From Promethearchaeota archaeon (GTDB lineage Archaea; Asgardarchaeota; Heimdallarchaeia; Hodarchaeales; Hodarchaeaceae): a stretch of 64,000 nt of DNA. Made by a program: the position numbers and the translations under genes. Within the stretch, counting starts at the first letter, position 1. Every line of letters begins with the position of its first letter. Under the pieces are notes generated by a model, which ran no database searches, was not told the origin of the DNA, and saw only the letters and a program-made list of their open reading frames with translations. This document shows positions 36,822-41,803 of this stretch, piece after piece. Where the stretch lies: positions 1-64,000 of the forward strand of contig JBHLMN010000019.1 in NCBI GenBank assembly GCA_048938105.1, written 5' to 3'.

Positions 36822-38189
36822 TTGGAATTCCCAATAGAAAAAATCAATTATGTTAATTGGGATTTTCCTAAAAGTAAGACTCAATTTCTGACTCATAAAT
36901 ATCACTCTTATCCAGCACGATTCATTCCCCAAATACCACGCACAATCTACAATATATGTCTCAATTCGAGTGGTTCTAGAATCTTTGACCCATTCGTTGG
37001 ATGTGGTACATCATTAGTTGAAGGAATTTTATCTCGGAATCACACAGGTGGAGTTGATCAAAATCCTCTAGCTATTCTAATATCAAGAGTAAAAACACGA
37101 CCTTTAGATATTAACTCCCTGAATAATTATTGGAAGAGTTTTCAGAAAATTACCCAGCATAAGAATTCTATTTTTCAAATCAAGACAAATCCTAAATCGT
37201 TATCTAATAAAGAAGAACAGTACACACCCCGAGAATTCATCTTTCCTAATCGAAATTTATCAATACGATTCACTGATGATAATATTCAAGCAATCTCTTT
37301 AATTCTAGATCACATTGAAGAAGAAGTAATAAATACCCAATTTCAGGACTTCTTTAGAGTTGGGCTCTCAGCAGTAATTACAACTCTAACAGAATCAAAA
37401 AATTGGAGAAAAGTAAATATTTGGAACACCTTCCGAGTAAAAATTAATTCTATGATACACATTATGGACAAGTTCAATCGTAAGGTTATGGGATTTAGTA
37501 ATGACATGCAAGAAGATATAAAACTCGGAGATTCGAGAAAAATATCTTTTATTTCCGATGAAACAATTGATTGCGTGGTTACATCCCCACCATATGTTAA
37601 TGCATTGGATTATAACCGTATTCATCAATATAATATGAGTATTCTCGGGTATGATTATCGAGCTTTTGCTAAAGCTGAAATTGGAGCTCATGGACACCAT
37701 ATTAGCAATAGGTGGAGATTATTAACGGAATATTTAGCAGATATGGCTCAATCAATAGTTGAAATGAATAGAGTAACCAAACAGGGAGGTGTCATATGCA
37801 TTATAATTGGGGATAGTTGTTTAGAATATGAGAATATAAGTTCTCATAGCCATTTTAAAGAATTAGGAAAATTATTAGGATTAACACACCAATTATCGCT
37901 TTCTCGAAACATCGATGCAACAAGTAAATCAACTAGTAATGACATTGGAAACATTTTTTCAGAGTATTTAATATTTTTTACAAAAGATAACGAATTTGAA
38001 AAGGGATCAGCAAATTTAATACATGAATATATTGAAAATACGTTGTACACCTACTTGGATCATGTAAAAACAAGTACAGGAACCTGTCTAAGAAATAAAG
38101 CCGAAATATCTACAGAAAGACAAGAATTAGCTGTTCAAAGGGTTGAAGAAGCTATATCAAAAATCAAGGAAGATTATCGTTCTGTTTAG
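36822..38189 (+). CDS. Probable N4-cytosine DNA methyltransferase (FxGxG before SPPY)
   Basis: LTHKYHSYPARFIPQIP, IFDPFVGCGTS, VVTSPPY. Confidence 0.88.
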   Translation: MEFPIEKINYVNWDFPKSKTQFLTHKYHSYPARFIPQIPRTIYNICLNSSGSRIFDPFVGCGTSLVEGILSRNHTGGVDQNPLAILISRVKTRPLDINSLNNYWKSFQKITQHKNSIFQIKTNPKSLSNKEEQYTPREFIFPNRNLSIRFTDDNIQAISLILDHIEEEVINTQFQDFFRVGLSAVITTLTESKNWRKVNIWNTFRVKINSMIHIMDKFNRKVMGFSNDMQEDIKLGDSRKISFISDETIDCVVTSPPYVNALDYNRIHQYNMSILGYDYRAFAKAEIGAHGHHISNRWRLLTEYLADMAQSIVEMNRVTKQGGVICIIIGDSCLEYENISSHSHFKELGKLLGLTHQLSLSRNIDATSKSTSNDIGNIFSEYLIFFTKDNEFEKGSANLIHEYIENTLYTYLDHVKTSTGTCLRNKAEISTERQELAVQRVEEAISKIKEDYRSV

Positions 38190-39132
38190 TGTTATTTTGG
38201 AAGGATTGATCGAGTTCCCTGTGTTTGAACTCAAGTTGTGTCTGGAAAATTCTTTTTTGGAGAGAAAGAACATATCTAGAGGTTTTAATCTGATCTCTGT
38301 ATTTTTCTGCCATTAGAAACCACCAAACATTCCATAAGGCTCTATTTATCCACCCTTCTGTACCAGCTTTGTGCAACATTTCATAAGAGTCAATAAAAGG
38401 TGGAGCGTACAACTCAAATAAATAGGCCATATTTTTCCCCTTCTTTTTCTTCTTGCGAGCTTCATGAACGTAAACAGATCCTTCAGGAGTATAACATGAA
38501 CATACGGCCGCGTTCCTTCGCCAACCAATCCAATCCCCAGAATAAAGAAAATCTTGAAAAGCGATTTGGTGGAATGGGCTTCCAACTCCAAAACCATGAA
38601 ATTTCTTTTCAGGGATAACACATGATAATGATGCTAGCCAAGATGCAACATCATGAACACTACCAGGTTGATTTATTTTGAATGAGGGAACCATTCCTCC
38701 TAATCCCACGTAATCGTTTGAAGGATATGAATTTCTGGTATCAGGTATATGGATAACTGGTATGATGTCATAATCAAACTTCTTGGTCAAATAGATCCAA
38801 TTTTGTCTTGATTTTCTTGAATTCCCAATTACATCCAAATTAACAATTATATCCTTATCATGAATATTTATTTCAGATAGAAATGACGCATAATCTTCAA
38901 CTTGGATGTTTACACCAGAGTTAAAAGCACTGTAAGCACCAGAATCCACCATAATTGGACCTTCAAAAGAGAAATAATCATGAAGACCTTTTGAAACCAT
39001 ATCAATTTCCTTCTTTCTAAAGGACCAATATGAGAATATAATTCCTGAATGATTTCTTATCATCTTTTTGTGAATACTCGGTTCAATTGACCAGGGAAAA
39101 ATACCTGGGACAACCCCTAAATATAGTTGCAA
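38164..39132 (-). CDS. TGT/DpdA-like guanine transglycosylase-fold protein 1
   Basis: IMVDSGAYS, VNLDVIG, IPVIH, GLGGMVP, FHGFGVG, SGDWIGW; no PUA domain or canonical CxCxxC site. Confidence 0.7.
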   Translation of the reverse strand: MQLYLGVVPGIFPWSIEPSIHKKMIRNHSGIIFSYWSFRKKEIDMVSKGLHDYFSFEGPIMVDSGAYSAFNSGVNIQVEDYASFLSEINIHDKDIIVNLDVIGNSRKSRQNWIYLTKKFDYDIIPVIHIPDTRNSYPSNDYVGLGGMVPSFKINQPGSVHDVASWLASLSCVIPEKKFHGFGVGSPFHQIAFQDFLYSGDWIGWRRNAAVCSCYTPEGSVYVHEARKKKKKGKNMAYLFELYAPPFIDSYEMLHKAGTEGWINRALWNVWWFLMAEKYRDQIKTSRYVLSLQKRIFQTQLEFKHRELDQSFQNNTKQNDNLP

Positions 39133-39294
39133 ATGTTACTCCTCTGGAGTTCTACTGATTTGATAACCTGATTTTTCAAGATTTAAAGGAAATTATACAT
39201 ATTTATAATTCGTATGGGAGAATTATTTTTAATATTGAACTAATTAATGTTGGTAACGATCTAGGTTAGATTTTCTTGAAAAGGTGGTATTATT

Positions 39295-40225: not shown

Positions 40226-40720
40226 ATGCTGTTGAAGCAACCTAAAGTCCTGTTAGTGGTTTCCTGTAGTAAGAAAAAATCTCCTCAGTTATATGATCGT
40301 AAAATGCGAGCTATAGAAGCTTATACTGGCCCAATGTTCCAAGTCATACATAAAGCCCAGCGTGAGGGTAAATGGGATTCTAACCTTTTTTTAGGAATTA
40401 TTTCTGCTAAATATGGGTTTCTACGTAGTGATGAGTTCATAGAGAATTATGATCTAAAAATGACAAGACAGATTGCTGAAAAACACAATCCTCAGGTTAT
40501 ACGAGAGATGATCAGGTGGAACAATGAAGAGAAATTTAATTGGATTTATGTTTTGATGGGTAAAACGTATTTAAAAGCTGTTGAAGGTTTAGAGGCTCAT
40601 ATAAATACAAACATCGAGGTTGAAAACATGGGGGGTCTTGGAATAGGCCAACAGAAGTTGGTACAGTTCTTGGAACTAGTCTCAGAGAGATCAATGTCCT
40701 TAACAGAGTTAGTGAAATGA
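40226..40720 (+). CDS. DUF6884/YaaA-like protein
   Basis: LVVSCSKKK...AIEAYTGPMF...IISAKYGFL...IENYDLKM...GIGQQ. Start set at ATG 40226. Confidence 0.7.
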   Translation: MLLKQPKVLLVVSCSKKKSPQLYDRKMRAIEAYTGPMFQVIHKAQREGKWDSNLFLGIISAKYGFLRSDEFIENYDLKMTRQIAEKHNPQVIREMIRWNNEEKFNWIYVLMGKTYLKAVEGLEAHINTNIEVENMGGLGIGQQKLVQFLELVSERSMSLTELVK

Positions 40721-40729
40721 GAGTTTATC

Positions 40730-41803
40730 ATGATTTTCGCCCTTGGTACTCCAATTAATGCAAGATTTCGCCCTTGGACTTATGATTGGACACTAAAACC
40801 AGATGCACTAATGGTTTCAGCAATTGATTTTTTTACTACCCCCACTTTATTTCAGAAAATTAAAAAGGTTGGAATTCATGAATATCTCAAGTGGGATGGC
40901 CAAATTATATGTGACTCGGGTGCATTTTCTGCATTAAATCGAAAGAAAAAGATCAACATTGATATTGAGGAATTGAAGAGAATTTATAGAGAAATAACGA
41001 GTCAAGATCCAAATATTCTAAAAATCACTTTAGACTTTCCTGATGATAAAATTTTAACTCATTATAGGGAGCTATATTCATTAGAAGTTCAACCTGTTGT
41101 TCCTTACGATCGAGTCGGAATTATGAACAATATTATTCGAAATGAAGGGTTACCTGAATGGTTTTTCATTGGACGTCTTGTTCCCCTGATGAGAAAGGGG
41201 GGAAGCCATGCAAATCGGTTATTTCCTGTGATTGAAGAATTAAGAAGACATCTTAAGAATATCGAAGCTTTAAGACTAATAAAATTATGGGCCTTGGGAG
41301 TAGGTGCTCCAAGTATCATTCTTCAACTAGCTGAATTAGTCGATGGGTGTGATTCTGCTCGTTGGCGTATAACAGGGTCCAATATGATACTTTTACCAAA
41401 AGGTGGGGAACGTGGTGTGGGAAACTTAACAAAGTGGCGTGGTACACATCACAGGATAAGTGAAGGATTTGAAAAAGAAATTGTCATAAAAATAATTCAA
41501 CAACTTGAGGAGAAATCAGGAGGATTGGGAAACATTGATATGTCTCTCCTTCCTGATAAACAACCAAAACAACTAAGAACCAAAAAAGAGAAAAATCTGC
41601 CAAAAATCGGAGAACTAATAAATAAAATACAAGAAAATAAGAATCAAATTTCAGTTTATGATCTAGAACTCCTCTTGCGAACATCAGGAAATTTAAGACT
41701 TCTATTTAATTACTGGTCTGCATTATCCTATAAAACTCAATTTAGCGGAGTCACTAAATCAAGAGAATCTAAACACTTTACACTGGATTCAATGTTAGAT
41801 TGA
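40730..41803 (+). CDS. TGT/DpdA-like guanine transglycosylase-fold protein 2
   Basis: IICDSGAFS, ITLDFP, QPVV, FIGRLVP, WALGVG, DGCDSARW. Confidence 0.68.
   Translation: MIFALGTPINARFRPWTYDWTLKPDALMVSAIDFFTTPTLFQKIKKVGIHEYLKWDGQIICDSGAFSALNRKKKINIDIEELKRIYREITSQDPNILKITLDFPDDKILTHYRELYSLEVQPVVPYDRVGIMNNIIRNEGLPEWFFIGRLVPLMRKGGSHANRLFPVIEELRRHLKNIEALRLIKLWALGVGAPSIILQLAELVDGCDSARWRITGSNMILLPKGGERGVGNLTKWRGTHHRISEGFEKEIVIKIIQQLEEKSGGLGNIDMSLLPDKQPKQLRTKKEKNLPKIGELINKIQENKNQISVYDLELLLRTSGNLRLLFNYWSALSYKTQFSGVTKSRESKHFTLDSMLD

Follow-up and report, generated by a model that had tools for sequence, protein, structure and literature searches.

To our knowledge, the known cases of 7-deazaguanines in DNA so far come from phages, archaeal viruses and the Dpd defence islands of bacteria. 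The DNA of the phages Rosebush and CAjan contains dPreQ0 (PMC6884629), and that of STSV-2 contains dCDG (PMC10516641). The active site of the transglycosylase DpdA comprises D95, D130, H181-G182, G206-G207 and D256 (PMC10164549). Here we examine a candidate relative of these systems in a Promethearchaeota archaeon of the order Hodarchaeales (GCA_048938105.1; genome of 5.85 Mb, 99% complete). The window analysed is the 64,000-nucleotide stretch formed by positions 1-64,000 of the forward strand of contig JBHLMN010000019.1, and the locus occupies positions 36822-41803 plus downstream genes to 46183. It encodes two TGT-like proteins, TGT-A and TGT-B, together with a DUF6884 protein and a methyltransferase (MTase) of 810 amino acids (aa). 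With slightly better than even confidence, we propose that these genes constitute a vertically inherited, restriction-less guanine base-exchange module of Hodarchaeales that would act on DNA.

Both TGT-like proteins are TGT-superfamily enzymes with intact catalytic aspartates. The Pfam TGT family matches each of them at only ~5e-3, which is under the gathering cut-off, and the assignment comes from AF2 models built from orthologue alignments (pLDDT of 94.2 for TGT-A and 88.2 for TGT-B). These models were used in a structural search with VIA-align, run all-against-representatives. The top five matches were the same for both models, namely ArcTGT (1iq8), the preQ0 DNA insertase DpdA (7ui4), bTGT, QTRT2 and Cap10 (9ntn_B), with Z-scores in this order of 25.4, 21.4, 19.5, 18.5 and 17.7 for TGT-A and 20.1, 18.4, 16.9, 15.2 and 14.5 for TGT-B. 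Unrelated TIM barrels reached Z ≤13 against both models. Each protein therefore has the TIM-barrel fold of the TGT superfamily. Neither carries a PUA or other C-terminal tRNA-binding domain, and both end after the barrel and a helical tail. An initial annotation of the locus, made from the sequence alone, had described two TGT-fold genes that retain a DSGA[YF] motif and a distal Asp and lack PUA and zinc modules; translations, alignments and models all agree with this description.

The conserved residues coincide with those of characterized enzymes. D63, D100 and D200 of TGT-A and D62, D102 and D208 of TGT-B align with the TGT/DpdA aspartates and are invariant in 45 and 43 orthologues, respectively. 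The nucleophile Asp of TGTs corresponds to the distal D200 in TGT-A and D208 in TGT-B. In TGT-A, the equivalents of the whole DpdA set (D63, D100, H128, G145-G146 and D200) are invariant among the 45 orthologues. The base-binding His181-Gly and Gly206-Gly207 of DpdA are thus kept in TGT-A and not in TGT-B, where an invariant Pro125 sits at the site of the DpdA His or tRNA-TGT Gln, and an invariant Gly148-Arg149 replaces the Gly-Gly loop that touches the 7-substituent. This remodelled pocket (Pro125, Arg149) suggests that TGT-B might recognize a different base or context. The earlier idea that the two paralogues may differ in base specificity gains some ground from this difference between their predicted pockets. 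The paralogues are distant from each other: BLASTP aligns only 55 residues around DSGA, and a profile-profile comparison extends over 176 columns at 97% probability. A complex prediction for TGT-A with TGT-B scored 0.02, which gives no verdict and is evidence neither way.

The kinship of TGT-A lies with viral enzymes. It matches phrog_887 at 1.2e-22 over residues 13-289, and TGT-B does so at 0.017 only. A tblastn search with TGT-A matched 95 phage or archaeal-virus records, and the best viral matches are TGT-like genes within FolE/QueD/QueE/QueC clusters of Vibrio Queuovirinae, Streptococcus phage MS1 and Mycobacterium phage Rosebush. The similarity extends to ORF18 of the Sulfolobus virus STSV1 (27% identity over 250 aa, 2e-14). 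The same search with TGT-B and with the DUF6884 protein found nothing in the phage collection. A maximum-likelihood tree of 41 sequences, which is thinly sampled with long branches and an arbitrary root and excludes one mislabelled TGT-B cross-match (TGTA_L045), sets the phage DpdA proteins (Rosebush, MS1, Vibrio and CAjan) as the sister of the TGT-A clade with support of 100/98. TGT-B and one metagenomic relative attach to this pair with weaker support (93/83). E. coli Tgt and the host's own ArcTGT branch elsewhere, in agreement with the initial view that neither protein is a canonical tRNA TGT. Neither protein reaches the curated cut-off of a canonical tRNA TGT model (TIGR00432 for ArcTGT, TIGR00430 for bTGT): TIGR00432 scores 31.6 bits for TGT-A and 20.7 bits for TGT-B against a cut-off of 350, and a canonical ArcTGT (513.8 bits, 651-aa frame) is encoded on another contig (C52) of the host genome. 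An ArcS-like gene likewise resides outside the window contig. PADLOC assigned 0 families to the two TGT-like proteins.

In STSV1, the DpdA-like ORF18 overlaps ORF19, which encodes a stand-alone DUF5591 (ArcS core) protein (L060:5001-6342), and this pairing of TGT and DUF5591 is seen again in two HerA-NurA loci (L034 and L064). TGT-B itself is very rare: of 1.84 billion proteins searched, 112 representatives match it at E ≤1e-3. Its nearest non-orthologous relatives (E-values of 1e-37 to 1e-20) are found in archaeal loci, with neighbours that include QueC, Vut_1, DUF5591, HerA-NurA, BrxC-like ATPases and PLD nucleases, and in two of these loci two TGT-like genes lie side by side. One metagenome contig (L061:883-7640) encodes a BrxC-like ATPase, a TGT of 357 aa, an unknown protein of 289 aa, a TGT-B-like protein (P0143), a PLD nuclease and a BrxC/BrxD ATPase; P0143 has the Gly-Arg loop and no pocket His, as in TGT-B. 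In another Heimdall family (G014, L028:5478-15093), tandem Pfam-grade TGT genes of 389 and 392 aa are accompanied by genes for a DNA MTase, a PLD/NgoFVII-like nuclease, a STAND NTPase and an AIPR protein, and the locus looks like a defence-type island with paired transglycosylases.

The genes of the locus, including those downstream, are arranged in the window as follows.

36822..38189, + strand: SPPY amino-methyltransferase in which motif I precedes motif IV; subclade-specific accessory
38164..39132, − strand: TGT-A, DpdA-like putative transglycosylase of 322 aa with a TTG start; D63, D100, H128, G145-G146 and D200 invariant
39295..40197, + strand: DUF362 protein (Pfam 2.5e-37); subclade-specific insert between TGT-A and DUF6884
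40166..40720 (open reading frame; likely gene 40226..40720), + strand: DUF6884 protein (PF21818), probable member of the YaaA-DpdC superfamily
40730..41803, + strand: TGT-B, divergent TGT-fold paralogue of 357 aa; D62, D102 and D208 invariant
41840..43138, + strand: MFS transporter (Pfam MFS_1, 2.9e-41); subclade-specific insert between TGT-B and the MTase
43275..45707, + strand: 810-aa beta-class N6/N4 DNA methyltransferase (Pfam N6_N4_Mtase, 8.1e-46)
45752..46183, + strand: UPF0047/YjbQ-family protein of 143 aa, directly after the MTase in the synteny comparison

The open reading frame (ORF) list of the window bears out the coordinates and strands of the five ORFs described at the outset, and the motifs DSGAY (TGT-A, D63), DSGAF (TGT-B, D62), CSKKK, SAKYG and SPPY are all present in the translations. 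The SPPY MTase and TGT-A genes overlap tail-to-tail by 26 nt (38164-38189), and TGT-B starts 9 nt past the DUF6884 stop codon. The MFS, 810-aa MTase and UPF0047/YjbQ genes follow TGT-B on the same strand.

The synteny of this arrangement was assessed by tblastn with the window proteins on the 20 kb surrounding the gene, in 20 genomes of the same genus plus three additional records. On every contig of sufficient length, TGT-A is divergent from a series consisting of DUF6884, TGT-B, the 810-aa MTase and UPF0047, and this holds across ~20 species of one Hodarchaeales genus. The module proteins share 41-85% identity across the genus. Gene order and the 9-nt spacing between DUF6884 and TGT-B are kept in the ~20 species down to 41-60% protein identity, and the order persists where DUF362, MFS or a 12-kb block has been inserted. 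This last block lies between TGT-A and DUF6884 in two species (G070 and G071) and has the same size in both. In G071 (L043:3911-15370) it encodes a 2979-aa laminin-G/DUF2341 giant protein, a glyoxalase, an HTH_10 regulator and an EamA transporter. The module occupies the same chromosomal site next to TFIIB, and this downstream TFIIB gene is syntenic with 79% identity. These features fit a module that has long been inherited vertically at a fixed site and under purifying selection.

Homologues are found almost only in Heimdall/Hodarchaeales Asgard archaea, with 69 matches for TGT-A and 67 for TGT-B at ~45-86% identity. A search for sequencing runs listed sediment and mangrove metagenome contigs and no RNA data. 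Among 399 Asgard genomes, strong TGT-A orthologues are present in this genus (~17 of 20) and one sister-family genome only; elsewhere in the scan, the TGT-A profile found only ArcTGTs and a few other TGT-like genes. Co-location of the genes elsewhere, which the initial annotation had left to be checked, is observed for TGT-A, DUF6884 and TGT-B in ~20 species and does not extend to the sister family, where the genes are dispersed.

The DUF6884 protein matches PF21818 at 2.3e-14 (54.1 bits, cut-off 30), and its SC(S/G)KxK and SAKYG segments, which are the family motifs CxxxK and LSAxxG, are invariant in 18-20 orthologues. Translation probably begins at Met21 (40226), since the alignment of the orthologues sets in at about residues 19-31 of the ORF. 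PF03883 (YaaA/DUF328, the DpdC family) also matches marginally, at 3.6e-7, with a score of 30.4 bits (cut-off 29.6) that covers just 69 residues. PADLOC DpdC models match 16 of 18 and 13 of 18 orthologues (best E-values of 3.5e-6 and 1.6e-6), and the PADLOC model PDC-M57A matches all 18; a literature search on PDC-M57 found nothing. A sequence search of the PDB with the TGT-B and DUF6884 profiles gave marginal spurious matches only (YjeQ and the RNR small subunit), and the DUF6884 profile did not retrieve YaaA. Pfam curators tie DUF6884 to the DNA-binding YaaA and a base-flipping model, and the family member YfjM was reported among the interactors of abasic and RNA-base lesions (PMC11701544). 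The protein is, by these sequence comparisons, probably a remote relative of DpdC/YaaA. Contrary to what had been thought, the locus would therefore not be quite devoid of DpdC; the accompanying statement that it lacks dpdB, folE and queCDE genes holds in searches of the whole genome for ParB_N, type IA FolE, QueC and QueE.

A search for related loci with the DUF6884 profile returned the same clade only. In a sister-family Heimdall genome (WAPZ01000512, L089:4692-8759), a DUF6884 orthologue with 48% identity is located away from TGT genes, between genes for GTP cyclohydrolase II, a CN_hydrolase of the nitrilase superfamily and two pterin-binding proteins. As preQ0 is a nitrile, the proximity of a nitrilase to a DpdC-like gene is suggestive. 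More distant DUF6884 genes, with 35-43% identity, abut or overlap an upstream gene in three contexts (L093:5091-6444, L094:5073-6462 and L095:5246-6456); L094 is a contig of viral origin that encodes capsid and portal proteins. The upstream partner was considered as a TGT-like protein and rejected, as it lacks a TGT-profile match in all three contexts. One of these partners has a weak match to AGOG, one has a weak match to MutY/EndoIII and one has no PDB match.

The 810-aa MTase is found downstream of TGT-B in all genomes examined. PADLOC matches it to MTase_III/II models, its C-terminal half contains the DPPF and FCGSG motifs, and its N-terminal half is conserved and free of catalytic motifs. 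Within the latter, a block at about residues 150-260 is strongly conserved among 18 orthologues (ESGGYWHSF...PPPGTHWK...PEYWVP...DSNWLDI). The UPF0047 gene always comes next after the MTase (64-89% identity), and it is uncertain whether it belongs to the module functionally. The remaining neighbours are not constant. DUF362 (loci L036-39, L042, L053 and L055), the MFS gene and the SPPY MTase are limited to the subclade of the window, so the SPPY MTase and DUF362 are not conserved members of the system proposed originally; the conserved partner is instead the 810-aa MTase, outside the region first delimited. The SPPY MTase has weak Trm11/RlmKL-type matches, and its position beside TGT-A is taken in other species by an MmeI/Eco57I-like enzyme. 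Transporters of the MFS or EamA type recur beside the module.

In the mechanism that we propose, TGT-A would be an inserter transglycosylase of the DpdA type and TGT-B a catalytically competent paralogue with another base or context specificity. The DUF6884 protein probably flips and tailors the inserted base, or assists in loading the enzymes, and could thereby take the place of DpdC and perhaps also of DpdB, which is missing. A second mark might be added to the same DNA by the co-inherited 810-aa MTase. The analysis establishes the fold, the conserved catalytic residues, the kinship to viral DpdA, the synteny and, within the searches made, the lack of DpdB, nucleases and de novo synthesis; that DNA is the substrate, which base is inserted and what the DUF6884 protein and the MTase do are inferred. 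As for the base, a queuosine-precursor transporter in the host genome scores above its cut-off, and this transporter, the canonical ArcTGT and the ArcS-like gene point to a predicted salvage of preQ0-type bases. A bolder version, which we rate as rather unlikely, is that Hodarchaeales chromosomes carry a constitutive, lineage-wide hypermodified guanine outside restriction, made from scavenged precursors, with TGT-A inserting a preQ0-type base, TGT-B, through the Arg in its 7-substituent loop, a carboxylated or other base and DUF6884 finishing the product. If true, the archaea closest to eukaryotes would possess a housekeeping mark with an epigenetic or genome-protective role.

Several results weigh against a DNA base-exchange module. 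The bacterial DpdA family PF23859 is absent among matches at E ≤0.01 for both TGT-like proteins, and a six-frame search of the host genome with it found nothing at E ≤0.1. A structural zinc site is conserved in TGTs and bacterial DpdA; in the sequences of both proteins, the part after the nucleophile Asp contains no Cys cluster that would form the site CxCxxC...H. Residues C211 and C213 of TGT-A are aligned with a non-zinc segment and fall outside the lists of conserved columns. The similarity of DUF6884 to DpdC is weak and confined to a short region. No match to ParB_N (DpdB) at E ≤0.01 was found in the 99%-complete genome, and the DpdD-K helicase and nuclease families are missing among the module genes and the conserved core of the ~20 species. 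Fixation at one chromosomal site throughout the genus without a nuclease is unlike the known Dpd defence islands. In the sister family, the module genes persist but are dispersed, with TGT-B on a separate contig. Finally, genome-wide searches gave no QueC or QueE above cut-off and no type IA FolE, and the two PTPS-family genes of the host genome are both under the QueD cut-off. Because FolE, QueC and QueE were not found, the base would have to be supplied by uptake. The best QueC candidate in the genome proved to be most similar to LarE, and the best QueE candidate to viperin; the latter family is represented by a radical SAM protein of 309 aa (G000:C63 ~53319-54245; L057:1384-2310) that scores 299.5 bits with NF038283 against a cut-off of 180.

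Some of these same observations would suit enzymes that remove bases. The TGT-like proteins could be DNA glycosylases or hydrolases that excise damaged or foreign bases, for example viral 7-deazaguanines, in repair or antiviral defence, and DUF6884 would then take care of the flipped base or abasic site. Base excision is the first step in the covalent Asp chemistry of TGTs, YfjM was reported among interactors of abasic and RNA-base lesions (PMC11701544), and distant DUF6884 genes are translationally coupled to weakly AGOG-like or EndoIII/MutY-like genes, once on a viral contig. That no de novo base supply was found in the genome and that the TGT-B pocket departs from the guanine/7-deazaguanine-binding set point the same way. 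However, TGT-A keeps the complete base-binding set of an exchange enzyme, His and Gly-Gly loop included, the nearest relatives of TGT-A reside in preQ0 synthesis clusters of modified-DNA phages, and the precursor transporter is present, and excision is on balance unlikely. An RNA substrate would account for the vertical inheritance and fixed locus, which are as expected of housekeeping genes; the module would in this case be a lineage-specific operon that places a 7-deazaguanine in tRNA or rRNA at a new position. The main target of the TGT superfamily is tRNA, ArcTGT is the best structural match, and the SPPY MTase has weak similarity to Trm11/RlmKL. We find this distinctly unlikely nonetheless, as the TGT-like proteins have no PUA or C-terminal RNA-binding domain and are set apart from tRNA TGTs in the tree, a canonical ArcTGT and an ArcS-like gene already exist in the genome, the neighbours that are always present are beta-class MTases of the DNA type with matches to PADLOC type II/III models, and the DUF6884/YaaA family is described as DNA-binding.

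Two further explanations concern the target and the association of the genes. Protein deazaguanylation by a TGT-family enzyme has been documented (bioRxiv 10.1101/2025.04.06.647259), and this precedent, along with the place of Cap10 (9ntn_B) as the fifth structural match (Z of 17.7 and 14.5), raises the prospect of an enzyme that conjugates deazaguanine to protein as in type IV CBASS. Yet these Z-scores are below those of ArcTGT and DpdA, the genome has no detected QueC/Cap9-like gene, and neither a CD-NTase nor a QueC-like Cap9 was found next to the module, which makes such a function extremely improbable. It is very improbable as well that the genes are unrelated neighbours held together by chance or local synteny only. 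The flanking housekeeping genes (TFIIB, glycine cleavage and SDR) are also syntenic and the genes are apart in the sister family, but the 9-nt spacing and the gene order hold in ~20 species and in the face of insertions, all parts have nucleic-acid-modification folds, and paired TGT genes recur in other archaeal loci.

Taken as a DNA base-exchange module, the locus would extend 7-deazaguanine DNA chemistry to cellular archaeal genomes, in the form of a nuclease-free, chromosomal system with two transglycosylases that is present genus-wide. The chromosomes of Hodarchaeales, which are close relatives of eukaryotes, may thus bear an undescribed DNA mark, and the setting of the module would be closer to an inherited genome mark than to mobile immunity. 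The proposal predicts reliance on environmental preQ0-type bases and gives DUF6884 a testable function. In addition, the altered pocket of TGT-B could reveal a new base specificity that is useful for DNA labelling.

Literature searches on DUF6884 and on Asgard archaea with 7-deazaguanine returned no description of such a module, and each of the known systems resembles it in part. ArcTGT (1iq8) is aligned with TGT-A over 277 residues (Z of 25.4, 20% identity) and shares the DSG, LD and nucleophile Asp motifs. Unlike ArcTGT, the two proteins lack the C1, C2 and PUA domains and the zinc site, and the Gln of ArcTGT is replaced by His in TGT-A and Pro in TGT-B. The bacterial DpdA/DpdB/DpdC system of Salmonella Montevideo (7ui4, PMC10164549) combines, as the module probably does, a TGT-fold enzyme with a YaaA-superfamily (DpdC-like) partner, shares the catalytic Asp pair, and provides the second structural match (Z of 21.4 and 18.4). 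It differs in that the archaeal module has no PF23859 or PADLOC DpdA match, zinc site, genomic DpdB or DpdD-K, its partner belongs to DUF6884 rather than DUF328, and it includes two transglycosylase paralogues. Archaeal defence-island loci with TGT/DpdA-like genes (HerA-NurA-DUF5591-TGT and BREX-related capture, PMC12839542) have paired TGT genes in common with the module and hold the nearest non-orthologous relatives of TGT-B. They contain genes for ATPases, nucleases and integrases and seem to be mobile, whereas the module has none of these genes and resides at a fixed site. The viral DpdA proteins (Rosebush, CAjan DpdA1, the Vibrio/Streptococcus DpdA2-type and STSV1/2) are, like TGT-A, small stand-alone TGT folds without PUA that have the active-site set Asp/Asp/His/Gly-Gly/Asp. 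In contrast to these viral enzymes, with which it shares only 25-31% identity, TGT-A has no adjacent FolE/QueD/QueE/QueC genes; it is cellular, chromosomal and vertically inherited, and is paired with a pocket-altered paralogue, a DUF6884 protein and a large MTase.

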